Shown here: positions 9,980-63,978 of the stretch, in pieces | Position numbering within the stretch: position 1 is the stretch's first letter | Layout of the letters: the number at the start of each line of letters is the position of its first letter | IMG/VR virus record: IMGVR_UViG_2974644367_000001 | Span: 10,237-74,236 of that record | Strand: one strand, 5' to 3' | DNA: 64,000 bases | Origin: a virus | Taxonomy: Duplodnaviria; Heunggongvirae; Uroviricota; Caudoviricetes | Notes under the pieces: generated by a model | The model's input: the letters and a program-made list of their open reading frames with translations, nothing else | Told to the model about the DNA's origin: nothing | Database searches by the model: none | Made by a program: the position numbers and the translations under genes

Positions 9980-10390
9980 ATGAAAACCGTTAAAAAGTCT
10001 ATCGCTGACCGCGAAGTCAGTATTACCTTACTTGGCCTGAAAGATGGTGTCAACATCTCTCTGAAGATTGCGCGTGTTGCTGCACCTGCTTATGGTCAGC
10101 TTATTGAAGCGTTCAGTAAGATTAAAGAAGGTAATAAAGACATCCCGATTAAAGATATTGTCTTGAACTGTCTGGACGCTATGGACGAGATGGATGTTAA
10201 CTCCGTTCTGGAAAAACTGTTCGATGGTATGCTGGTTGATGACCGACCAATGACCCTTGACCAAGCGTTTGCTGGTAACTATGGATTCATGATGGATTGC
10301 GTAATCTTCGCTATTGAAAAGAACTTCTCAAGTTTTTTCGAAGCAAGCATTTTCAAAAACCTGTTTTCAGAGTCGGAGACGGAGCAGTAA
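9980..10390 (+). CDS. Tail assembly chaperone (G-like), short product. An alternative start at 9938 is possible.
   Basis: An acidic protein of about 136 aa directly upstream of the tape measure. The ATG at 9980 has an AAGGAAA ribosome-binding site. Confidence 0.55.
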   Translation: MKTVKKSIADREVSITLLGLKDGVNISLKIARVAAPAYGQLIEAFSKIKEGNKDIPIKDIVLNCLDAMDEMDVNSVLEKLFDGMLVDDRPMTLDQAFAGNYGFMMDCVIFAIEKNFSSFFEASIFKNLFSESETEQ

Positions 10391-19930: not shown

Positions 19931-19955
19931 GGGACTCTTCGGAGTCCTTTTTATT
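19931..19955 (+). terminator. Intrinsic terminator (GGACTC-UUCG-GAGTCC followed by T5)
   Basis: A perfect 6 bp stem, a UUCG tetraloop and a T-tract. Confidence 0.7.
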
Positions 19956-29587: not shown

Positions 29588-29612
29588 AAATAAAAGGACT
29601 CCGAAGAGTCCA
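29588..29612 (-). terminator. Intrinsic terminator (UUCG hairpin family), minus strand
   Basis: On the + strand this reads AAAAGGACTCCGAAGAGTCC, and on the minus strand it is GGACTC-TTCG-GAGTCC-TTTT. Confidence 0.65.
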
Positions 29613-31521: not shown

Positions 31522-31546
31522 TAAAAAAGGACTCCGAAGAGTCCCT
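31522..31546 (-). terminator. Intrinsic terminator (UUCG hairpin family), minus strand
   Basis: AAAAAAGGACTCCGAAGAGTCCC on the + strand. Confidence 0.65.
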
Positions 31547-46633: not shown

Positions 46634-46655
46634 GGGACTCTTCGGAGTCCTTTTT
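46634..46655 (+). terminator. Intrinsic terminator (UUCG hairpin family)
   Basis: GGGACTCTTCGGAGTCCTTTTT. Confidence 0.7.
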
Positions 46656-50921: not shown

Positions 50922-50944
50922 GGGACTCTTCGGAGTCCTTTTTC
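50922..50944 (+). terminator. Intrinsic terminator (UUCG hairpin family)
   Basis: GGGACTCTTCGGAGTCCTTTTT. Confidence 0.7.
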
Positions 50945-52203: not shown

Positions 52204-52227
52204 GGGACTCTTCGGAGTCCCTTTTTA
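52204..52227 (+). terminator. Intrinsic terminator (UUCG hairpin family)
   Basis: GGGACTCTTCGGAGTCCCTTTTT. Confidence 0.7.
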
Positions 52228-53448: not shown

Positions 53449-54294
53449 ATGATTAGTTTAACAGTCAATCATCAGAATGTAGCAATCAGTCGAACTACCT
53501 TCCCTGCTGGAGAGGTTGGTGTGAGTCTGGATGTTATGGGTCTGAAAAAGGCAATCAGCGGTTCAAACACTGTTGAAGTCGCTATTCACACTCAGGGCTA
53601 TGAGCCTAATATGCTGATTACCATCATGCAGTTGAAAGAGGCAATCAACCAGTTCTTCTTGCCATACATGGTCAAGCCTCGTTATATTCTGATGCTGTCA
53701 TACATGCCATTCTCACGCTATGACCGTCACATGTATCATGGTGATGCCTTTGGCCTGAAGGTGTTTGGTCAGGTAATCAACAGCATGAACTTTGACATGG
53801 TTGTGACTATTGATGCTCACAGTGATGTTACTGGTGGTGTTATCAATAACCTGTACAATATTCCTCAAGTTGAGGCTTTGATGACTCACAGATTCTTGCG
53901 TGATTATGATGTCGTCGTCGCTCCAGATGCAGGTGCAGAGAAGAAAGCTACCGCTGCTGCAAAAGCTATGCAGTGTGAACTTGCAACCCTTGTAAAACAC
54001 CGGAACGTCATGACTGGTGAGATTACTGGTATGGGACTGTCAACAGGTATTGTTAAAGACAAGAACTGCTTGATTGTTGATGACCTGTGTGATGGTGGTG
54101 CAACGTTTGTACACGCTGCTGCAAAACTTTTCACTCTCGGTGCAAAATCTGTTGACTTGTACGTTACTCACGGAGTATTCTCTAAGGGTACTGAAGTTCT
54201 GCGAAATGCAGGGATTGAGAACATTTACACCACGAACTCCTTCGAACAGGAAGGTAACGGTGTTAACTTTGTCGGCTACGGCTCATTAATTTAA
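53449..54294 (+). CDS. prs: Ribose-phosphate pyrophosphokinase (PRPP synthetase)-like
   Basis: PRPP-binding motif LIVDDLCDGGATF. Confidence 0.7.
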   Translation: MISLTVNHQNVAISRTTFPAGEVGVSLDVMGLKKAISGSNTVEVAIHTQGYEPNMLITIMQLKEAINQFFLPYMVKPRYILMLSYMPFSRYDRHMYHGDAFGLKVFGQVINSMNFDMVVTIDAHSDVTGGVINNLYNIPQVEALMTHRFLRDYDVVVAPDAGAEKKATAAAKAMQCELATLVKHRNVMTGEITGMGLSTGIVKDKNCLIVDDLCDGGATFVHAAAKLFTLGAKSVDLYVTHGVFSKGTEVLRNAGIENIYTTNSFEQEGNGVNFVGYGSLI

Positions 54295-54307
54295 TAGGGA
54301 ACTGAAC

Positions 54308-56140
54308 ATGAACAATACACTGATTGCTACTCTGGTATGTGACGCTTACAAATCCGGTCATAAATTCCAATACCCTGCGGGTCTGGATTCACTGTTTCTT
54401 AACATTACTCCACGTAATGCGAAGTATTTTCCCGGTGGCACAGAGGTAGTTGCAAACTTCGGTTCAACCTCTTTCCGTGATACTTGGCTTGTCAAGTTCT
54501 GGAATGAAAACTTCTTCAACGTTCCAAAAGATGTTGTCATGGAAATTCATGCAGCTTATATGGATGGTGTACTTGGGAAAGGCACACTGACTCATGACCA
54601 CATTGCAGCACTGCACGACTTAGGTTATCTGCCTATCATTGTTCGTGCTCTGCCAGAGGGTTCTGTGTCACCTGTCAAGGTTCCTGTGATGACTATCGAA
54701 ACTACGCACAAAGACTTTGCATGGGTCGGTGGCTATCTGGAAGACCTGTTCAGTTCTAACCTGTGGAAGGTTATGACCATTGCAACTATCGCAATGAAGT
54801 ATCGTGTTCTTCTGGAGCGTTTCGCTGAAGAAACTGGTGTTGACAAAGGCTTCGTTGACTATCAGGCTCACGACTTTGCATTACGTGGTATGTCTGGTGT
54901 TCACGATGATATTCAGAATAACATTGGTCATCTGGCATTCTTCAAAGGGACTGACTCATTCCCTGCAACGTGGTCTGTGAAACAGTTTTACGGTAACGGT
55001 GTTCAGATTAGTGACATCGCAGGTTCTGTACCAGCAACCGAACACAGTGTTACCTGTGCAAACATCGCAGTAGAAGCAAGTCAGATGGTGTTATCTTCCG
55101 GTGCGTTCGGTGATGGTAATCCTCAGACACAGGCAGCACTGCTTGCAAAAGCTGAACAGAAGTTCTTTGAGCGTCTTCTGACAGAGGTTTACCCAACTGG
55201 CATTCTCTCTATGGTTGGTGACACAAACAACTGGTATGATACCGTCACAACCAAAGTGCGTGAACTGAAAGATGTCATCATGAAACGTGATGGTAAACTG
55301 GTTCTTCGTCCAGATTCCGGTATTCCAGAGCACATCGTTGCTGGCTATCGTTGTATTGAGATTGAGAGTGCAAAAGCAGTCATTGCTGAAGAGTACAAAT
55401 CAGGTCGCCTTGGTTGGGCTTCGGTTCTGGAAAGCAATCTTGCTGACATTAAAGAACTGACCATTGACAAGCTGACTGCAAATGATTGCCAGATTATCAA
55501 GAACGCTGGCTATGAAGTTGTAGTTGATGCTGAAGATTTTGATGGTGCATACTGCGTCTTCCTTGACGAGAAGATTAAAAGCCCATCTGTCAAAGTTGGT
55601 CGCTATGTACAGATTGAAATTCTGGAAGGTGCTATCGAATCACTGTGGAAAATCTTTGGTGGTGATGTAACAACTAAAGGTTACAAGGTTCTGGACGAAC
55701 ACATTGGCCTGATTTACGGTGACTCTATCACACTGGAACGTGCTGAAAATATTCTTCAGCGTCTGAAAGAGCGTGGATTCGCAAGCTGCAACGTGGTGTT
55801 TGGTGTGGGTTCATTCACTTACCAAATGCTGACACGTGATTCACTCAGCTTTGCTATCAAGGCGACTGTGGCAACTGTTGACGGGATTAACTATCCACTG
55901 TCAAAAGACCCAATCACTGATGATGGTACGAAGAAATCAGCTACAGGTTACATCATCGTTCGTGACACTGGAACAGGTGAACCGTTGCACATGATTGATG
56001 GTCTGAGTCGTCAAGCATACGACAACCTGAACCAGCAGGGATTGAATGAACTCCGTGTGATTTTTGCAGACGGCGAGTCAATCAACTATGAAGAGAACAT
56101 TCTCACAATCCGTGACAAGTTCTTGAAAAACATGAAGTAA
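54308..56140 (+). CDS. nadV: Nicotinamide phosphoribosyltransferase
   Basis: Whole-length resemblance to the NAMPT family. Its pairing with prs is typical of phage NAD+ salvage. Confidence 0.8.
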   Translation: MNNTLIATLVCDAYKSGHKFQYPAGLDSLFLNITPRNAKYFPGGTEVVANFGSTSFRDTWLVKFWNENFFNVPKDVVMEIHAAYMDGVLGKGTLTHDHIAALHDLGYLPIIVRALPEGSVSPVKVPVMTIETTHKDFAWVGGYLEDLFSSNLWKVMTIATIAMKYRVLLERFAEETGVDKGFVDYQAHDFALRGMSGVHDDIQNNIGHLAFFKGTDSFPATWSVKQFYGNGVQISDIAGSVPATEHSVTCANIAVEASQMVLSSGAFGDGNPQTQAALLAKAEQKFFERLLTEVYPTGILSMVGDTNNWYDTVTTKVRELKDVIMKRDGKLVLRPDSGIPEHIVAGYRCIEIESAKAVIAEEYKSGRLGWASVLESNLADIKELTIDKLTANDCQIIKNAGYEVVVDAEDFDGAYCVFLDEKIKSPSVKVGRYVQIEILEGAIESLWKIFGGDVTTKGYKVLDEHIGLIYGDSITLERAENILQRLKERGFASCNVVFGVGSFTYQMLTRDSLSFAIKATVATVDGINYPLSKDPITDDGTKKSATGYIIVRDTGTGEPLHMIDGLSRQAYDNLNQQGLNELRVIFADGESINYEENILTIRDKFLKNMK

Positions 56141-56148
56141 TTTATAAA

Positions 56149-56171
56149 GGGACTCTTCGGAGTCCTTTTTT
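56149..56171 (+). terminator. Intrinsic terminator (UUCG hairpin family)
   Basis: GGGACTCTTCGGAGTCCTTTTTT. Confidence 0.7.
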
Positions 56172-56181
56172 ATTTTATCTG

Positions 56182-56210
56182 TTGACATCACCACACCAAA
56201 TGAATTAAAG
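56182..56210 (+). promoter_or_regulatory. Sigma70-like promoter (TTGACA-N17/18-TAAAGT)
   Basis: Strong -35 element. It is followed by the shared leader motif at 56226..56242. Confidence 0.45.
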
Positions 56211-56249
56211 TAATCACATCGAAAGCAAACAACTAACTGAGGAAATATC

Positions 56250-56711
56250 ATGAATCGTCGCATCACTGCCGTATCAAAAGACTTCTACAATCGTCGCATG
56301 GGTGAACTGGTAAAGCAATTCCCTAACGTGTTTAACAAGTCTCTTCCTATGCCGCTGGCGATTGGTGTTCACAAGACTCTGGCAGAGCAGACTGAGTTTT
56401 CTCGCAAAGAAATCAATGCGATGTTATCAGTGTGGACTCGTCGCCATGAGTATGTTTGTGCAGCCGTTACTCACGGTTTCCGTGTAGACCTGAACGGCGA
56501 GTTCGTTGAAGAAATCTCAGAAGAACATCTGTATGGGTTTAGCCGTGCATTTGATAATCTGACCAAGAAGCAAAAGGCTGGCTTTACTCGCCGCTGGAAC
56601 CGTGCTGATACCACTGACCAGTTCGTATGTGAACCATTCGAGTGCTACGTTGAAGCGAAGGTTGAAGAGCCTGTGGAAACCGAAGAGGTATGTCAAGAAT
56701 GCCTGATTTAA
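56250..56711 (+). CDS. FinO/ProQ-domain RNA-binding protein with a C-terminal Cys4 cluster
   Basis: It aligns to the E. coli ProQ N-terminal domain. Shared features are FPxxF, PLAIGV, the SxxEIxxxLxxWT pattern, RVDLNGE and EEHLYG. Confidence 0.7.
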   Translation: MNRRITAVSKDFYNRRMGELVKQFPNVFNKSLPMPLAIGVHKTLAEQTEFSRKEINAMLSVWTRRHEYVCAAVTHGFRVDLNGEFVEEISEEHLYGFSRAFDNLTKKQKAGFTRRWNRADTTDQFVCEPFECYVEAKVEEPVETEEVCQECLI

Positions 56712-57040
56712 AGATGCAGTCGTTCAATATCAATGCTCACTTTGTACTTGAAGAAGCAGAGATTGATAAGGCTATTGAAGCACTGGAGTTACTTGCAGAG
56801 CATCATAGCAACCGTTCAAGTTGGGAGCCTTTATCTGAAGAGTCAACGGTGACAATTGTCATCACAGTTAAGGGTTGTGAAGATACGTTGGGTTGGACTC
56901 AAAAGCTGCAAAAGCAGTCAAGAGGTGCTTTAAAAGCGTATCTGAAAGATGCCCGACAAAAAGACGGTATCAAGTTCGCAAGCACTTCACGAATCCGTGG
57001 GGCGGTTGTATTTGAACCATCAGTAATTTTCTACTCATAA
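56690..57040 (+). CDS. Hypothetical protein
   Basis: ORF coupled to the upstream gene. Confidence 0.4.
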   Translation: MSRMPDLKMQSFNINAHFVLEEAEIDKAIEALELLAEHHSNRSSWEPLSEESTVTIVITVKGCEDTLGWTQKLQKQSRGALKAYLKDARQKDGIKFASTSRIRGAVVFEPSVIFYS

Positions 57041-57050
57041 GGTAAGAAGA

Positions 57051-57215
57051 ATGGACGTTCACACTGGTCTTAACATCTTACTGGTTCTGGTTATTGTGGG
57101 CGGTCTATTAGCTGCCAAGTACCGTGTAGACTCATGCTGCAAGCATTGTGATGGTACAGGCGTTAAAGATGGTTGTGTATGTCCATTCTGTCACGGAACC
57201 GGAGAAGATGATTGA
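57051..57215 (+). CDS. 54 aa membrane-anchored peptide with two DnaJ-type CxxCxGxG zinc-finger motifs
   Basis: The translated ORF (not in the supplied track) is MDVHTGLNILLVLVIVGGLLAAKYRVDSCCKHCDGTGVKDGCVCPFCHGTGEDD. Confidence 0.45.
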   Translation: MDVHTGLNILLVLVIVGGLLAAKYRVDSCCKHCDGTGVKDGCVCPFCHGTGEDD

Positions 57216-57289
57216 CAGTCACCTGTCAACTGTTTTAGAATCTGTTTTGGGGTGAACAACACCCCTTAACTCAAAAGGATAATCCCGAC

Positions 57290-59740
57290 ATGAAAATGAA
57301 TTACGAACATCAAGCAGTCCAGAAAAGTTCTAATACTCTGGAGACTACTCAGGCACAGATTATGATGACACCTGAGATGCTTGACCTGCTTTCTTCTGGT
57401 GTTTATGAGTATAAGGCACGTGCAGTTATCCGTGAATTATCTTGTAATGCACTTGATGGTCACATGGTAAAAGGCAATGTCGATGAACCATTTGACATTC
57501 ACTTACCAACCACCTTCGAACCTTACTTTGAGATTCGTGATAAAGGTGTCGGTCTGTCCCATGAAGCAATCATGAACATGTACCTGAACTATGGTGCTTC
57601 GACGAAGAACAATTCGAATGACTTCATCGGTGCTATGGGTATCGGTTCAAAGTCTCCGTTTGCTATCTCTGATTCGTTCACTGTCCGTTCATACTTTGAG
57701 GGTAAGGTAACGACTTATCAGGCATACAAAGAGAACGGTATCCCTAACCTAACTAAGCTGATGGAAAAGCCAATGGCAGAGGGTGAGGAAACTGGTCTGG
57801 CTGTTCGTGTAGCTGTTCGTCAGGAGTTGACTGATGAGTTTCGTCGTGAAGCTGCTTACGTCTTTGAAACGTTTGCTGTGCGACCTAACATCAACATTGA
57901 CATAAACTATATTGACCGTAACTCTATGGTTATGTCTGAGAAAGCTGGCGTCTACACAGCATTTCACGGCACAGGGAACTCTTACAGTCGTCGTGGTGAC
58001 AACTTCCTATATGTGGTGATGGGGTCTATCCGTTATCCTGTCAAGCTGGAAGCGGTGATGTCTGATGATGAGATGTCAGCTATCAACAACAGTCCTATGA
58101 TTGATTCTATCGGCTGTCTGTGGGTCTACGTCCCAATTGGTTCAGTGTCCATCTCTGCGAGTCGTGAATCACTCCAGATGAATGAGTCAACCAAGAAGTT
58201 TATTCTGGATGCCTTTAAAGACATCTCGTCTGACTTCATGGCAGACCTTCAGAAAGGTTTTGATGACATTGACGACTACTGGAAAGCTGGTCATCATTGG
58301 GTTAACCTGAAAAGCAAGCTGCGTAGTCACAGCCAGATTGCATACTTTGCCAAGAACTTGACTTGGAAAGGTAAGCAGATTTCTCGTCTGGTTGAAGAGG
58401 CTGATGCAGCCCGTCTGGTTCCTCGCCTTGATGAGTTTGGCAATCAGATGTACAAAAAGGATTCTTCCGGTCAGCCTCTGGAACTGAACGGTCAGAAAGT
58501 GCCTTTGATGATGAACTACGAAGCATATTGCTATCGCTGGAACAACCTTACTTCAACATCGTCTTGGGCGAAACGTGAGCGTTGGACTAAGAACAACCTT
58601 GAAACAGACATGGCTAAGGTCTCTCCTTGGAAGACTACCAATGACTTCTTCAATGGTGTATTGTTCTTTGTCTATGACCGTATCACCCGTTCAGGTACTG
58701 AGAAGACAACTGGTAAAGAGCAAGTGTTGCGTGGTATGGGCTTTGCTTTCCAAGAGTCCACTAAAAACAACTTGAACTACCTGTGCATGGTTGACTCTCG
58801 CGCTGAGGCAGAGATTATCTGGAACCGTCACAAAGTACCAGAAGACCAACGTCACTTCGACATGGCTTCTAAGTATGAAGACTGCTACACCCCTGCAAAG
58901 CGTCAGAAAGGTGTGGTGAAGTTATGGGTTCACAGTTATGCAGAGTATCACAAGAAACAAAATATTGGTGATTACCGTAACGGGTTTATCAATACTGGTT
59001 ACGTGAACTCTGAAGAGTTTAAGGTTGACTTGTCTGTTCTTCAGGACGATGAGAATGAACACCTGTACCTTCAGTCAAACAACAACGTAATCACTAACGG
59101 TGTGTTTAACGGTAAAGGTGCAACTGATGTTGCCAAACTGATTGCACCGTTAATCACTGGTAAGATTGTGGTGTTTAACAAGGCCAACTGGAAAAAGATT
59201 CCCGAAGATTGGGAGAATGCCAGTGATGAAAACGTTCTGCGTAAACTGATTGACAAACATCCTCGACTCTGGAAAGCTATGAACCAGTCGATGATTGAGT
59301 CTGCTATGCCAGACCGCTTTAAGCGTCTTGCAGCGATGGGTGTTGCTCTGCCAAACAGTAATGATTACTTTGGTCAGTCTATGCGTGGTCGTGTTCTGAA
59401 GTGGGAAGGTGCAAGACAGGTTCTTGAACAAATCTTGAATAAGCCTTGCTATTCGATTCCACAGATGGTACAGTCTTGCTCAGTCAGTCACAGCAACATC
59501 CTTGGTTCCATTTACAAGATGCTGCCACACTGTAAGCTGCATACTTCCATCAAGAAAGCGCGTCAGCGTATGGAAGCAGATATTGAGAAGAACAAAAACA
59601 ACCTGTTCAACTCTAAATATAAAGTGCTGAAGTTTATTGACTTCAACCGTGTGCAACTGTTAGAATTAGCCGAAGCACTTGACATCAACTTTGACAGAAC
59701 GTATGTTAACGATGATGGTGTAAGATTCTACAACCATTAA
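57290..59740 (+). CDS. rIIA: rIIA-like protein (N-terminal GHKL/Bergerat ATPase domain)
   Basis: GHKL motifs ELSCNALDGH, IRDKGVGL and GAMGIGSKS. 816 aa. It lies immediately upstream of rIIB. Confidence 0.65.
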   Translation: MKMNYEHQAVQKSSNTLETTQAQIMMTPEMLDLLSSGVYEYKARAVIRELSCNALDGHMVKGNVDEPFDIHLPTTFEPYFEIRDKGVGLSHEAIMNMYLNYGASTKNNSNDFIGAMGIGSKSPFAISDSFTVRSYFEGKVTTYQAYKENGIPNLTKLMEKPMAEGEETGLAVRVAVRQELTDEFRREAAYVFETFAVRPNINIDINYIDRNSMVMSEKAGVYTAFHGTGNSYSRRGDNFLYVVMGSIRYPVKLEAVMSDDEMSAINNSPMIDSIGCLWVYVPIGSVSISASRESLQMNESTKKFILDAFKDISSDFMADLQKGFDDIDDYWKAGHHWVNLKSKLRSHSQIAYFAKNLTWKGKQISRLVEEADAARLVPRLDEFGNQMYKKDSSGQPLELNGQKVPLMMNYEAYCYRWNNLTSTSSWAKRERWTKNNLETDMAKVSPWKTTNDFFNGVLFFVYDRITRSGTEKTTGKEQVLRGMGFAFQESTKNNLNYLCMVDSRAEAEIIWNRHKVPEDQRHFDMASKYEDCYTPAKRQKGVVKLWVHSYAEYHKKQNIGDYRNGFINTGYVNSEEFKVDLSVLQDDENEHLYLQSNNNVITNGVFNGKGATDVAKLIAPLITGKIVVFNKANWKKIPEDWENASDENVLRKLIDKHPRLWKAMNQSMIESAMPDRFKRLAAMGVALPNSNDYFGQSMRGRVLKWEGARQVLEQILNKPCYSIPQMVQSCSVSHSNILGSIYKMLPHCKLHTSIKKARQRMEADIEKNKNNLFNSKYKVLKFIDFNRVQLLELAEALDINFDRTYVNDDGVRFYNH

Positions 59741-59748
59741 TACAAACG

Positions 59749-59770
59749 GGGCTGGAAACAGCCCTTCTTA
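59749..59770 (+). terminator. GAAA-tetraloop hairpin (attenuator or weak terminator) between rIIA and rIIB
   Basis: GGGCTG-GAAA-CAGCCC followed by TTCTT. Confidence 0.35.
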
Positions 59771-59792
59771 AACGAAGTGAAGGAAACCTAAA

Positions 59793-60920
59793 ATGACTAT
59801 GACTAAAGCTCAGATTGATGCTCAGATTTTCGCAGATGTTTCTAACGGTATGACCAAAGCAGCAGCCGCTGAAAAATATGGTACGTCTGCCCGTTCCATC
59901 GGTCGTGCGATTGAGCGTCATGAGAAGTCTGGCGGTAAAGCCCCTGCCAAAGCCGCTGTAAAGCCCGCTAAGGCGACTTCTAAGAAGTCTGGTAAGAAGG
60001 CTAAGTCAACTGCCAAAGCCGCTCCTAAGCGTTCTGACGTGGCTAAAGCTGCACCTTACAAGCCAGAAGAAAAGACTCAGGTAGCCAGTACCGTGCTGGA
60101 AGCACTGGAGAAAGGTGATAAAGTTGAGTACATCAACACGTCATCATCTGTTGTTCTGACTCTGAACGGTGAATCAGAGATTGTTGAAGAAACTCATCCG
60201 AACTTCAAAGCAATTCAGATTGCTATTGTTTCAGGCGACTTCAAACAAGCGTTTGCTCTGATGAACATTCGTAAGTCCATTGAGAACTTCACTCAGGGGG
60301 CAATCACCATCAAAGGTGACAAACTGTTCTACGGTACTATTGAAATCCGTTCAACGATTGCACAGCGTATTCTGGAACTGATGCGTCAGGGTGATGATGG
60401 CTTTAAAACTCTGGTCAGCTTCTTCGAAAAACTGATGGAGAACCCATCACGCAACTCTGTTGAACAGCTTTGGGGCTTCATCTCTCACAACGACATTGAG
60501 ATTGACTCTGAAGGTTATATCATCGGTTGGAAGCGTGTTCGTAACAACGGTAACGGTCTGGTTGATAGCCGCACCAGCAAAGTTCCTAACAACATTGGTA
60601 ACATCGTGTCAATGCCTCGCTGGATGGTTGACGCAGACAAAAACGTTACCTGTTCACAGGGTCTGCATGTTGGCGCTTGGGATTACGTCCGTTCATTCTC
60701 TGGCGATACCACTATCAAGGTTCGTGTCCATCCACGTGACGTTGTATCTGTACCAACAGACTACAATGACCAGAAGATGCGTTCTTGCCAGTATGAAGTT
60801 GTCGGTGTGGTTGACAGCAACCGTAAAATCATCGACGTGACCAACCTGAAAGGTCTGGCTACAGAAGTGGTTGTTGTCGGCTCTGCTGGTGAACTGATTT
60901 CCCGTAAACCACGTGTCTAA
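59793..60920 (+). CDS. rIIB: rIIB protein
   Basis: The C-terminal block RVHPRDVVSVPTDYNDQKMRSCQYEVV matches T4 rIIB KVHPRDVVSIPIDYNDAKMRTCQYEVV. The N-terminal HTH and a Lys/Ala-rich linker are also present. Confidence 0.85.
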   Translation: MTMTKAQIDAQIFADVSNGMTKAAAAEKYGTSARSIGRAIERHEKSGGKAPAKAAVKPAKATSKKSGKKAKSTAKAAPKRSDVAKAAPYKPEEKTQVASTVLEALEKGDKVEYINTSSSVVLTLNGESEIVEETHPNFKAIQIAIVSGDFKQAFALMNIRKSIENFTQGAITIKGDKLFYGTIEIRSTIAQRILELMRQGDDGFKTLVSFFEKLMENPSRNSVEQLWGFISHNDIEIDSEGYIIGWKRVRNNGNGLVDSRTSKVPNNIGNIVSMPRWMVDADKNVTCSQGLHVGAWDYVRSFSGDTTIKVRVHPRDVVSVPTDYNDQKMRSCQYEVVGVVDSNRKIIDVTNLKGLATEVVVVGSAGELISRKPRV

Positions 60921-60927
60921 ATGAATT

Positions 60928-60946
60928 GGGGCGAAAGCCCCTCTTC
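60928..60946 (+). terminator. Intrinsic terminator (GGGGC-GAAA-GCCCC followed by TCTTCT)
   Basis: Hairpin right after the rIIB stop codon. Confidence 0.45.
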
Positions 60947-60960
60947 TAAGAGGAATTGAA

Positions 60961-61203
60961 ATGTACTATCTGATTGTTGTGCTGTCCTATCTCGTTGCGA
61001 TACTGACTTGGCCTGTTGCGATTGTCAAGTTCCTGTATGAAATCTTCAAACTCGATGTACCGTTCTGGTCATCACTGATTTCGAATGGCCTTGGTGGTGT
61101 GGTAATCTTCATCATTGCAGTTGTGTTCATCATCCTCTTCGGACGATTGCAATTTGAGAAATCATCAAAGAAACTCTTGTCACGCACTAACCGTTGGCAT
61201 TAA
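60961..61203 (+). CDS. Small membrane protein (2 TM)
   Basis: Hydrophobic 80 aa. Confidence 0.45.
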   Translation: MYYLIVVLSYLVAILTWPVAIVKFLYEIFKLDVPFWSSLISNGLGGVVIFIIAVVFIILFGRLQFEKSSKKLLSRTNRWH

Positions 61204-61208
61204 ACTAT

Positions 61209-61232
61209 AGGGACTCTTCGGAGTCCTTTTTT
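61209..61232 (+). terminator. Intrinsic terminator (UUCG hairpin family)
   Basis: GGGACTCTTCGGAGTCCTTTTTT. Confidence 0.7.
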
Positions 61233-61246
61233 ATTTGGAGGAAAGT

Positions 61247-61816
61247 ATGATTGAGTTTAGAGAGGGTAAGCCAAAAGCGATGGGGCTTTACCTTTGCAAA
61301 GTTAACCCTGAACCTATAACGCTTCCGGTTGCTGATAACCAGATTCTGTTCTTTCAGGAAGGTGATTGGTGGTGGCCTCGTTCAGATGCACGTTACCGTG
61401 ACCATGTTTATCTTTGGGCTGGCCCGATTCAGGTTTTGAAACTGGAAGAAACCATTCAGGAAACAACTGTGCATAACTTCTACCACATTGGCAAGAAGAT
61501 TCCAGATGGTTACGTGTACATTGGAAGGGCTGGACAGGGCTTGAAAGAACACCCGCTACATAACCCTTTCAAGATAACAGATAAGTGTGACCGTGATACT
61601 GTGATACGGAAGTATGAAAGTTATCTCTGGCGTGGTATGAACAATGGGACTATTGACCCTGCACTAATTCTTTCTCTTGACGGAAAGAAACTGGTCTGTT
61701 ACTGTTCACCTCACAAATGCCACGGTGATGTTATCGTTAAAGCTATCGAGTGGCTTAAAACAGACGACAACTACCAAAAGATGAAGGAGAAGTACGATGC
61801 GAATAGACAAAGATAA
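61247..61816 (+). CDS. DUF4326-like protein (HNP motif and CYCxPxxCHGD cluster); track start is TTG at 61235
   Basis: EHPLHNPF and LVCYCSPHKCHGD in the C-terminal half. GGAGGAAAG ribosome-binding site. Confidence 0.5.
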   Translation: MIEFREGKPKAMGLYLCKVNPEPITLPVADNQILFFQEGDWWWPRSDARYRDHVYLWAGPIQVLKLEETIQETTVHNFYHIGKKIPDGYVYIGRAGQGLKEHPLHNPFKITDKCDRDTVIRKYESYLWRGMNNGTIDPALILSLDGKKLVCYCSPHKCHGDVIVKAIEWLKTDDNYQKMKEKYDANRQR

Positions 61817-63955: not shown

Positions 63956-63978
63956 GGGACTCTTCGGAGTCCTTTTTA
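63956..63978 (+). terminator. Intrinsic terminator (UUCG hairpin family)
   Basis: GGGACTCTTCGGAGTCCTTTTT. Confidence 0.7.

Follow-up and report, generated by a model that had tools for sequence, protein, structure and literature searches.

The gene gp085, at 56250..56711 (stop codon included) on the plus strand of a 64,000-nucleotide stretch of phage DNA (the window; positions 10,237 to 74,236 of IMG/VR record IMGVR_UViG_2974644367_000001), encodes a genuine FinO/ProQ-domain protein of 153 residues. The surrounding region, 56100–57400, is 100% identical to Erwinia phage vB_Eam-MM7 (M7; HQ728263 / NC_041978), and 36 Kolesnikvirus records match it at 91–100% identity. M7 is a virulent fire-blight phage, a Felix O1-like myovirus of the genus Kolesnikvirus (Ounavirinae), and its record supplies the names gp085, gp086 and gp087 for the three open reading frames (ORFs) considered here. 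We think it very probable that gp085 is a FinO protein that binds the 3′ ends of RNA. That its specific role is the protection of phage messenger RNAs (mRNAs) we propose only tentatively. The combined proposal, a 3′-end-binding FinO protein that caps terminator ends and most plausibly protects phage mRNAs, we regard as evenly poised.

How secure is the domain assignment? The Pfam profile PF04352 matches gp085 at an E value of 7.7e-19 and 68.1 bits, far above the gathering cut-off of 27; the alignment spans residues 17–109 of the protein and positions 8–104 of the 109 in the profile. Against the sequences of the PDB, phmmer returned RocC (8.5e-6), FinO (1.6e-4), Lpp1663 and E. coli ProQ (2e-3) and NMB1681 (0.037). 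A BLASTP comparison with the N-terminal domain of E. coli ProQ gave 28% identity over 80 residues (pairwise E 8e-9). Its register is that of the alignment on which an earlier note, made by reading this DNA without database searches, had based the FinO/ProQ assignment. The AlphaFold2 model, built on 48 homologues, has a predicted local distance difference test (pLDDT) score of ~95 over the core, residues 7–124 (56268..56621). It contains helices at 7–23, 40–47, 52–62, 66–75 and 91–102, and strands at 77–79 and 85–88. When this model was compared with the PDB by Foldseek, the 26 best matches (E below ~1e-3) were all FinO-domain structures, RocC, Lpp1663, FinO and NMB1681 among them, and the next match had an E value of 0.45. 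RocC is the best fold match (E 7e-6, target-normalised TM-score ~0.70, 27–29% identity). Sequence, profile and predicted fold thus uphold the earlier assignment, and the two computational checks proposed with it, a PF04352 search of 56250..56711 and a structure prediction, both came out in its favour. No second Pfam domain was found in gp085 at E ≤ 1. No second FinO-like ORF was found in the window either: of all the ORFs of 50 residues or more in the six frames, a hidden Markov model (HMM) made from the 48 homologues matched gp085 alone.

Is gp085 then a ProQ, or a FinO? It scores 25.4 bits against the NCBIfam ProQ equivalog NF003434, whose cut-off is 127, and 33.8 bits against the FinO subfamily NF010317, whose cut-off is 136. 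The domain begins near residue 7, and gp085 has neither the basic linker and Tudor-like domain nor a basic N-terminal extension. Because it lies far under both cut-offs, gp085 is an orthologue of neither protein, and the gene name ‘proQ’ in some phage records is over-specific. It belongs instead to the heterogeneous, mobile-element-borne branch of the FinO/ProQ family. Its nearest relatives are phage or metagenomic proteins at 40–50% identity. An origin from a plasmid was considered and rejected, the plasmid homologues being distant (30–35% identity).

Contrary to what the earlier note had implied, it is not in itself new that a phage should carry such a gene. Sister Kolesnikvirus records already label it ‘proQ: RNA chaperone’, ‘sRNA-binding protein’ or ‘ProQ/FINO family protein’, UniProt names the phage homologues ProQ/FinO domain-containing protein, and a 2023 review had noted phage-encoded members in the heterogeneous branch (PMC9977716). 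By tblastn, 77 phage records contain FinO-domain genes; the phages concerned are Kolesnikvirus, Moazamivirus and other Grimontviridae, Gordonclarkvirinae, Lahexavirus and Shewanella phage KASIA. The proteins fall in PHROGs 18901, 35316, 21591 and 30855, all labelled ‘unknown function’. An exhaustive homologue search returned 305 cluster representatives at E ≤ 1e-3, 27 of them at E ≤ 1e-10, and the BFVD holds 11 viral FinO folds, several of them named ProQ/FinO domain-containing protein. One BFVD entry from Salmonella phage 7-11, G0X575 (125 residues), is an apparent second, highly divergent FinO fold (14% identity, Foldseek E 5e-6), in addition to the 234-residue FinO-domain protein of that phage. 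In the literature we found no study characterizing a phage FinO-domain protein.

Does gp085 retain what a FinO domain needs in order to hold RNA? In the RocC–RocR co-crystal the RNA is contacted by Gly52, Ser70, Lys71, Thr82, Arg83, Tyr87 and Arg97, of which Gly52, in a β-turn, Tyr87 and Arg97 form the pocket for the 3′ nucleotide (PMC9674577). The pocket residues correspond to G39, Y68 and R78 of gp085, the rim residues Thr82 and Arg83 to T63 and R64, and the helix N-cap residues Ser70 and Lys71 to S51 and R52; the HMM alignment of the two proteins is free of gaps between S51 and R78. Among the phage-clade homologues, Y68 and R78 are invariant (48/48) and G39 is kept in 47 of 48, which makes these the most conserved positions of the clade. 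The 3′-terminal-nucleotide pocket of gp085 is therefore intact. The core as a whole, taken as residues 1–119, is basic (net charge +7, isoelectric point (pI) 9.9). By analogy with the RocC–RNA structure, the basic concave face would grip the phosphates at the base of a terminator hairpin by way of the S51/R52 helix N-cap, and the terminal nucleotide of a short U-tail, with its 3′-OH, would be buried in the G39/Y68/R78 pocket.

The gene is under strong purifying selection. Between M7 and the related phage Tian the ratio of nonsynonymous to synonymous substitution rates (dN/dS) is 0.048 for the whole gene, 0.05 for the core and ~0.03 for the C-terminal tail. All 36 records of the genus carry the gene, which is split into two pieces in SeKF_13 (OR863359). 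In phiEa116 the protein (P0002) is an 86-residue fragment, and in vEam_PM_6 (PP079182) gp087 aligns from residue 31 only. Such disrupted copies of gp085 and gp087 could be sequencing artefacts or real losses; real loss would mean that the genes are dispensable in the laboratory.

What is the role of the tail? The last 34 residues of gp085 (residues 120–153, 56607..56708) carry a net charge of −10 (pI 4.05) and four cysteines in the pattern C127-x4-C132-x15-C148-x2-C151. All four are kept in M7, Tian, Rouille, phiEa21-4 and the P0001 cluster representative, in a genus that is 3–8% divergent at the protein level; in Rouille three residues are deleted between the two cysteine pairs. Since the tail codons of M7 and Tian differ by six synonymous changes against one nonsynonymous change (ω ~0.03), the tail is a functional peptide. 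This acidic Cys4 tail is confined to Kolesnikvirus; none of the other phage FinO proteins examined has it. The C-terminal Cys4 cluster remarked on in the earlier note is thus present, but it does not amount to a clear additional zinc module. The pLDDT of the tail falls below 50. The conservation of its last cysteine pair is confounded, moreover, because the start of gp086 lies over those codons: the gp086 start codon, 56699–56701, shares its T and G with the Cys151 codon TGC, so that codon 151 is fixed as TGN, and the GAGG Shine–Dalgarno sequence of gp086 lies inside codons 146–147. Zinc binding is no more than plausible. We suggest that the tail probably modulates or gates RNA binding, possibly by means of a Zn(Cys)4 site.

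Other phage FinO proteins end differently. Many members of the phage clade (P0021, P0025, P0032, P0037, P0057, P0059, P0060, P0063 and P0066) carry a C-terminal motif, F(G/K)RPA(F/L)..(V/I)P(I/V)..R, where gp085 has FVCEPFECYV; it appears to be an undescribed extension motif of the phage FinO branch. The metagenomic relative P0060 ends in a different cysteine cluster, CSGACTECENC.

Which RNAs might gp085 bind? The uniform UUCG hairpins of which the earlier note spoke are real. A terminator cassette, GGACTC-TTCG-GAGTCC-T(4–6), occurs in nine exact copies in the window. Seven are on the plus strand (19932–19947, 46635–46650, 50923–50938, 52205–52220, 56150–56165, 61211–61226 and 63957–63972) and two on the minus strand (31529–31544 and 29596–29611). 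Each lies 5–15 nucleotides (nt) past an ORF stop codon, and a 33-nt terminator query finds ~12 matches per Kolesnikvirus genome. These terminators fold as stems of 6–10 base pairs (bp) with a free U-tail of ~3–5 nt, and the rules reported for FinO-domain ligands ask for a stem of at least 5 bp, a tail of ~4–5 nt and a 3′-OH end (PMC9674577). In seven of the nine the first U residues are paired with a run of purines on the 5′ side, an arrangement that recalls the A-rich 5′ motif described for ligands of ProQ (PMC12001967). By their predicted folds, then, the phage terminators would be compatible with the FinO-domain ligand rules, as any intrinsic terminator would be. The most obvious ligands of gp085 would be the phage's own mRNAs, which end in ~12 identical GGACUC-UUCG-GAGUCC-U(n) terminators. 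Capping of these 3′ ends could shield the transcripts from 3′→5′ exonucleases and from polyadenylation, by analogy with ProQ, which is described as protecting mRNA 3′ ends (PMC12086684). The 3′ ends of transfer RNAs (tRNAs) were considered as ligands as well; their geometry, a helix with a 4-nt 3′ tail, fits, but there are no tRNA genes in the window, and we leave this as speculation.

Several observations weigh against this proposal. The N-cap arginine of RocC, Arg75, is conserved to ~80% across the family, and its replacement in R75D weakens binding more than 100-fold (PMC9674577). The corresponding residue of gp085 is Asn56, in a column that is non-basic in 23 of the 48 phage-clade members and R or K in the other 25. 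Because the N-cap arginine has been replaced, the affinity or specificity of gp085 for RNA may differ from that of the model proteins. It would seem to keep the 3′-end-capping apparatus and may grip the helix differently. The whole protein is acidic (pI 5.9), and the tail could hold it inactive. The match to the terminators is generic, since FinO domains recognize RNA by its structure, whatever the sequence of the loop. Single UUCG terminators almost identical to these are present in T4-like and other phages that are absent among the FinO-gene matches, and Felix O1 has UUCG-loop terminators, with varied stems, but no FinO gene; a FinO protein is therefore not required for terminators of this type. 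We accordingly rejected the uniform UUCG terminators as a FinO-specific ligand signature. The literature, finally, yielded no binding data for gp085 or for any phage FinO protein.

Might the domain have ceased to bind RNA altogether, serving some other role such as protein binding, or persisting as a remnant? The loss of the N-cap arginine (N56) would fit, as would the strong acidity of the tail, which could cover the basic face. But a dN/dS of 0.05, the pocket residues Y68 and R78 in 48 of 48 members of the phage clade, and the carriage of the gene in all 36 genus records, even if split in SeKF_13, are difficult to reconcile with such a loss, which we consider extremely unlikely.

If gp085 does bind 3′ ends, might these be the ends of host rather than phage RNAs? 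It could compete with, or replace, host ProQ (and indirectly Hfq) on host small RNAs (sRNAs) and mRNA 3′ ends, so that during takeover the host would be reprogrammed post-transcriptionally or its RNAs freed for decay. The 3′-end pocket of gp085 is the same as that of the global binders ProQ and NMB1681, and Erwinia amylovora has a global ProQ (PMC9977716). ProQ and FinO discriminate between ligands by the sequences that flank the terminator (PMC12001967), and a divergent domain could select a distinct subset of host RNAs. Yet gp085 has no more than 28% identity with the N-terminal domain of ProQ and is without the basic linker and the Tudor-like domain, there is no evidence for host targets, and close relatives such as Felix O1 infect enterobacteria without a FinO protein. 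We think it unlikely that the host network is the target.

A narrower specificity can also be imagined. Like FinO with FinP, FopA with Inc or RocC with RocR, gp085 might serve as a dedicated matchmaker, pairing one or two phage antisense or small RNAs with a phage mRNA and so timing its expression. Its branch of mobile-element proteins, in which RocC and FinO are its best PDB matches, consists mostly of proteins of narrow specificity with a cognate RNA (PMC9977716; PMC12001967). Against this, no Rfam family was found in 55500–61600 at E ≤ 1, and consensus scans around the locus, confined to this window, gave no convincing minus-strand promoter–terminator pair; neither approach yielded a candidate antisense RNA near gp085. 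All nine uniform terminators, moreover, follow ORF stop codons and so mark the ends of mRNAs, not of sRNA genes. A matchmaking role is in our opinion very unlikely.

How is gp085 expressed? Upstream of it an intrinsic terminator (56146..56171; 10-bp stem, −13.2 kcal/mol, z −4.0), one of the nine uniform cassettes, closes the preceding transcript. It is followed by a σ70-type promoter (56182..56211), TTGACA-18 nt-TAAAGT, which matches 10 of the 12 consensus positions, and by a Shine–Dalgarno sequence, GAGGA (56239..56243), read from the sequence. In the divergent allele of phiEa21-4 the terminator, both hexamers and the Shine–Dalgarno sequence are unchanged, while 8 of the 18 spacer positions differ. 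The consensus match and this footprint support the promoter from which, in the earlier note, gp085 is transcribed; that it is strong, as was also said, is not established. Host RNA polymerase would thus express gp085 from a conserved σ70 promoter of its own. In Felix O1, ORFs 127–130 and rIIA peak at 25 min (PMC3185647), and by analogy with these flanking genes gp085 expression is probably delayed-early or middle.

The 109 nt upstream of gp085 (56141–56249) are 100% identical in M7, Tian and Rouille, the flanking genes being 86–92% identical. Is this stretch specially constrained? We rejected that explanation. Within the genus the intergenic region comes in two allelic forms, that of M7 in 16 records and one at ~86.5% identity in 18, a distribution that points to a shared recombination tract. 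Tian, classified in the species Ea214, carries the M7 allele between flanking genes that are 8–13% divergent, as expected of such a tract.

Does gp085 form a functional module with the two small genes that follow it? The earlier note had put forward a three-gene unit, and its layout is sound: the ORFs lie at 56250–56711, 56690–57040 (116 residues as the longest ORF) and 57051–57215, directly before rIIA (57290..59740; PHROG 612, E 3e-160) and rIIB (59793..60920; PHROG 609, E 7e-91) of a virulent phage, all on the plus strand. The 116 residues are those of the longest ORF, but relatives annotate gp086 from the ATG at 56699, giving 113 residues (56699..57040); this is the annotated start in Tian, and PHROG 27920 aligns from residue 4 of the long ORF. 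The start of gp086 overlaps the end of gp085 by 13 nt, and the two are likely to be translationally coupled. All three genes lie in one transcription unit, which begins at the promoter at 56182–56211 and meets no uniform terminator until 61209–61228, the next of this type on the plus strand. Internal promoters precede rIIA and rIIB; that before rIIA (57212..57241), again of the σ70 type, reads TTGACA-18 nt-TAGAAT and matches 11 of 12 consensus positions. Common transcription of gp085–gp087 is not evidence of joint function.

The two small genes have histories of their own. Homologue searches with gp086 found Kolesnikvirus members only, with no match in Pfam or NCBIfam. A fold assignment was dropped, the AlphaFold2 model from a three-sequence alignment having reached a pLDDT of 49 and a predicted template-modelling score of 0.38. 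The gp087 gene (57051..57215; PHROG 3931, E 4e-18) encodes 54 residues with the motifs CKHCDGTG and CPFCHGTG. It matches DnaJ models in their Cys-rich segment only, at 24 bits against a cut-off of 377, and no match to Pfam DnaJ_CXXCXGXG was found at E ≤ 1. In DnaJ, paired CxxCxGxG motifs make one zinc centre. The two DnaJ-type zinc fingers suggested in the earlier note are thus indeed two CxxCxGxG motifs, but probably a single zinc site. The gp087 product is a predicted membrane peptide, not a DnaJ, and the dnaJ annotation in some records is wrong.

The comparison with Felix O1 is instructive. No FinO homologue was found in Felix O1, and no Felixounavirus is among the 77 phage records with tblastn matches. 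The interval that separates the NAMPT gene of Felix O1 from the rIIA end of its genome holds ORF130 (111 residues) and ORF131 (58 residues). ORF131 is homologous to gp087 (33% identity, E 4e-6), both having a transmembrane helix and two CxxCxGxG motifs. Homology between gp086 and ORF130 could not be established (29% identity by MAFFT, with two short common motifs; BLASTP E 0.037; hhalign probability 2.8%), and ORF130 is a positional counterpart only. Both gp086 and gp087 are confined to the 36 Kolesnikvirus records and never lie beside the FinO genes of other phages. The functional module is not sustained by these observations. Because Felix O1, which lacks FinO, has a gp087 homologue and a gp086-sized ORF at this place, the FinO gene looks inserted beside a pre-existing pair, and the simplest history would be the insertion of a single FinO gene upstream of it. 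The Kolesnikvirus lineage would then have acquired gp085 alone, between an upstream operon, described next, and the small-gene pair that precedes rIIA.

What is this upstream operon? Two plus-strand genes, 13 nt apart in M7, precede the terminator at 56146..56171. The first (53449..54294) is Prs-like, matching NCBIfam ribose-phosphate diphosphokinase at 122 bits and Felix O1 ORF127 at 40.6% identity. The second (54308..56140) is NAMPT-like (Pfam NAPRTase, E 4e-27; PHROG 448, E 3e-169; NCBIfam NF006629, 425 bits). The Prs + Nampt operon of the Felix O1-like phage Bas63 has been shown to be NARP1, composed of Adps and Namat, which rebuilds nicotinamide adenine dinucleotide (NAD+) against NAD+-depleting defences and occurs in 4.3% of phages; for 97% of Adps-clade proteins a Namat homologue is encoded in the immediate neighbourhood (bioRxiv 10.1101/2024.02.11.579819). 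Adjacency and domain content fit NARP1, and the ‘PRPP synthetase / NAMPT’ pair is most likely this anti-defence operon, with the two genes as candidate Adps and Namat. In Tian and Felix O1 an HNH endonuclease gene lies between the Prs-like and NAMPT-like genes; it is absent in M7 (54295–54307). It looks like an insertion polymorphism of a mobile homing endonuclease within the NARP1 operon.

FinO genes lie within ~2 kb of an Adps/Namat pair at 6 of the 12 distinct loci sampled: in Kolesnikvirus, in Salmonella phage 7-11 and in four metagenomic phage-like lineages. In Kolesnikvirus the FinO gene is downstream of Namat, whereas in the other NARP1-linked lineages it is upstream of Adps, and the Kolesnikvirus Namat is 46% identical to that of Felix O1 against 36–40% to those of the other lineages. 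As the gene order differs and the Kolesnikvirus Namat is closer to that of Felix O1, these comparisons suggest that FinO and NARP1 were juxtaposed independently. How many times? The metagenomic contigs have an upstream AAA ATPase and TerC/TerD in common, and the AAA ATPase is also found in 7-11. They are probably one 7-11-like lineage with inherited synteny, and the independent events may for that reason be only two. In several of the metagenomic phage-like contigs the FinO/NARP1 block has tellurite-resistance-type genes (TerB, TerC and TerD) as neighbours, and in the P0032 contig TerB lies directly upstream of the FinO gene.

Could gp085 then be an accessory of counter-defence, acting with or alongside NARP1 and rIIA/rIIB, either by securing expression of the NARP1 mRNA or by neutralizing an RNA component of a host defence? 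The six loci out of 12, in view of the rarity of NARP1, and the apparent independence of the juxtaposition are what would be expected. There is also the precedent of a phage anti-defence protein, T4 TifA, that binds ToxI RNA (PMC10853763). But if the metagenomic contigs are one lineage the count falls to about two events, and accessory genes cluster in phage early regions in any case. FinO loci of the ECBP2, KASIA and LAh_8 types have no NARP1 nearby, and the NARP1 of Bas63 works without any FinO gene. A counter-defence role is, on this evidence, distinctly unlikely, and the linkage of FinO to NARP1 is a lead, not a result. A bolder form of the idea may be stated. FinO proteins would be a recurrent accessory of the counter-defence and takeover regions of virulent phages, independently placed beside NARP1 in Kolesnikvirus and 7-11-like phages and acting on RNA, and in the Kolesnikvirus protein the tail would act as an autoinhibitory gate that responds to zinc or redox state. 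Such a protein could cap the 3′ ends of NARP1 and rII mRNAs during host-induced RNA decay, or could neutralize an immune RNA. We hold this to be decidedly improbable.

Some further elements of the gp085-to-rIIB unit deserve mention. A perfect inverted repeat, TTGACAG-TCAC-CTGTCAA (57212–57229), overlaps the −35 element of the rIIA promoter; it may serve as an operator, or form a hairpin where gp087 ends. A G+C-rich hairpin without a clean U-tract, GGGGTG-AAC-AACACCCC as read, lies in the 5′ untranslated region of rIIA (57253–57269). Hairpins also follow the stop codons of rIIA (59749–59764, GGGCUG-GAAA-CAGCCC) and rIIB (60928–60941, GGGGC-GAAA-GCCCC), and short pyrimidine-rich stretches come after them. 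These G+C-rich hairpins could act in attenuation or in RNA stability. A small hydrophobic ORF of 80 residues (60961–61203), placed after rIIB and before the next uniform terminator, has no family match; at only 81% DNA identity between M7 and Tian it is the most divergent coding sequence of the block.

What does the phage protein add to our picture of the family? After Hfq and the CsrA-type proteins, the FinO/ProQ proteins are counted as the third major class of RNA-binding proteins associated with sRNAs in enteric bacteria. To our knowledge every characterized member is chromosomal or plasmid-borne. Here a well-conserved subfamily under purifying selection is present in several unrelated groups of virulent phages. 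The discovery is incremental, the domain assignment being already public and phage members having been noted in reviews. It brings some corrections of annotation: the names ‘proQ’ and ‘dnaJ’ are over-specific, and the ‘PRPP synthetase / NAMPT’ pair is most likely NARP1. The Kolesnikviruses are biocontrol phages of fire blight with tractable hosts, and gp085 offers a practical entry to the viral use of a 3′-end-binding RNA chaperone. What a virus might gain from one includes mRNA protection, interference with host sRNAs and counter-defence.

How does gp085 compare with the FinO-domain proteins already known? In size it resembles NMB1681, the minimal ProQ of Neisseria meningitidis (PDB 3MW6), which is small, nearly domain-only, and binds many RNAs. 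The folds match (E 4e-4), but the sequence match is weak (E 0.037). NMB1681 is encoded on the chromosome, and in place of the acidic tail of gp085 its extensions are short and basic. The other phage FinO proteins (G0X555 of 7-11, and those of Escherichia phages SU7 and ECBP2, Aeromonas phage LAh_8 and Shewanella phage KASIA) are 29–42% identical to gp085, with the Y/R pocket invariant. They differ in what follows the domain: a domain of ~120 residues in 7-11, nothing in LAh_8, and a GRPAF/L..P motif in many metagenomic members. FinO of the F-like plasmids (PDB 1DVO) and FopA are, like gp085, encoded by mobile elements and belong to the same heterogeneous branch, FinO matching in both sequence and fold. 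Plasmid FinO, however, is extended at its N terminus by a basic segment and acts with an antisense RNA of its own, FinP.

ProQ of E. coli and Salmonella provides the mechanism that we propose for gp085, in that it binds and stabilizes terminator hairpins at the 3′ ends of mRNAs and sRNAs. The two have the FinO domain in common (28% identity over 80 residues), but ProQ carries a basic linker and a Tudor-like C-terminal domain that gp085 lacks, and ProQ R58 and R62 are replaced by N56 and S60. The closest counterpart is RocC of Legionella pneumophila (PDB 7RGS/7RGT/7RGU), the best match in both sequence and fold, which has in common with gp085 the β-turn glycine, the N-cap Ser/Lys, the Thr-Arg pair and the Tyr/Arg pocket. 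They part at RocC Arg75, which is Asn56 in gp085, and in their setting: RocC, a repressor of competence encoded on the chromosome, is prolonged by a long C-terminal extension and has one sRNA partner, RocR, whereas gp085 is a phage-encoded protein of 153 residues that ends in an acidic Cys4 tail.

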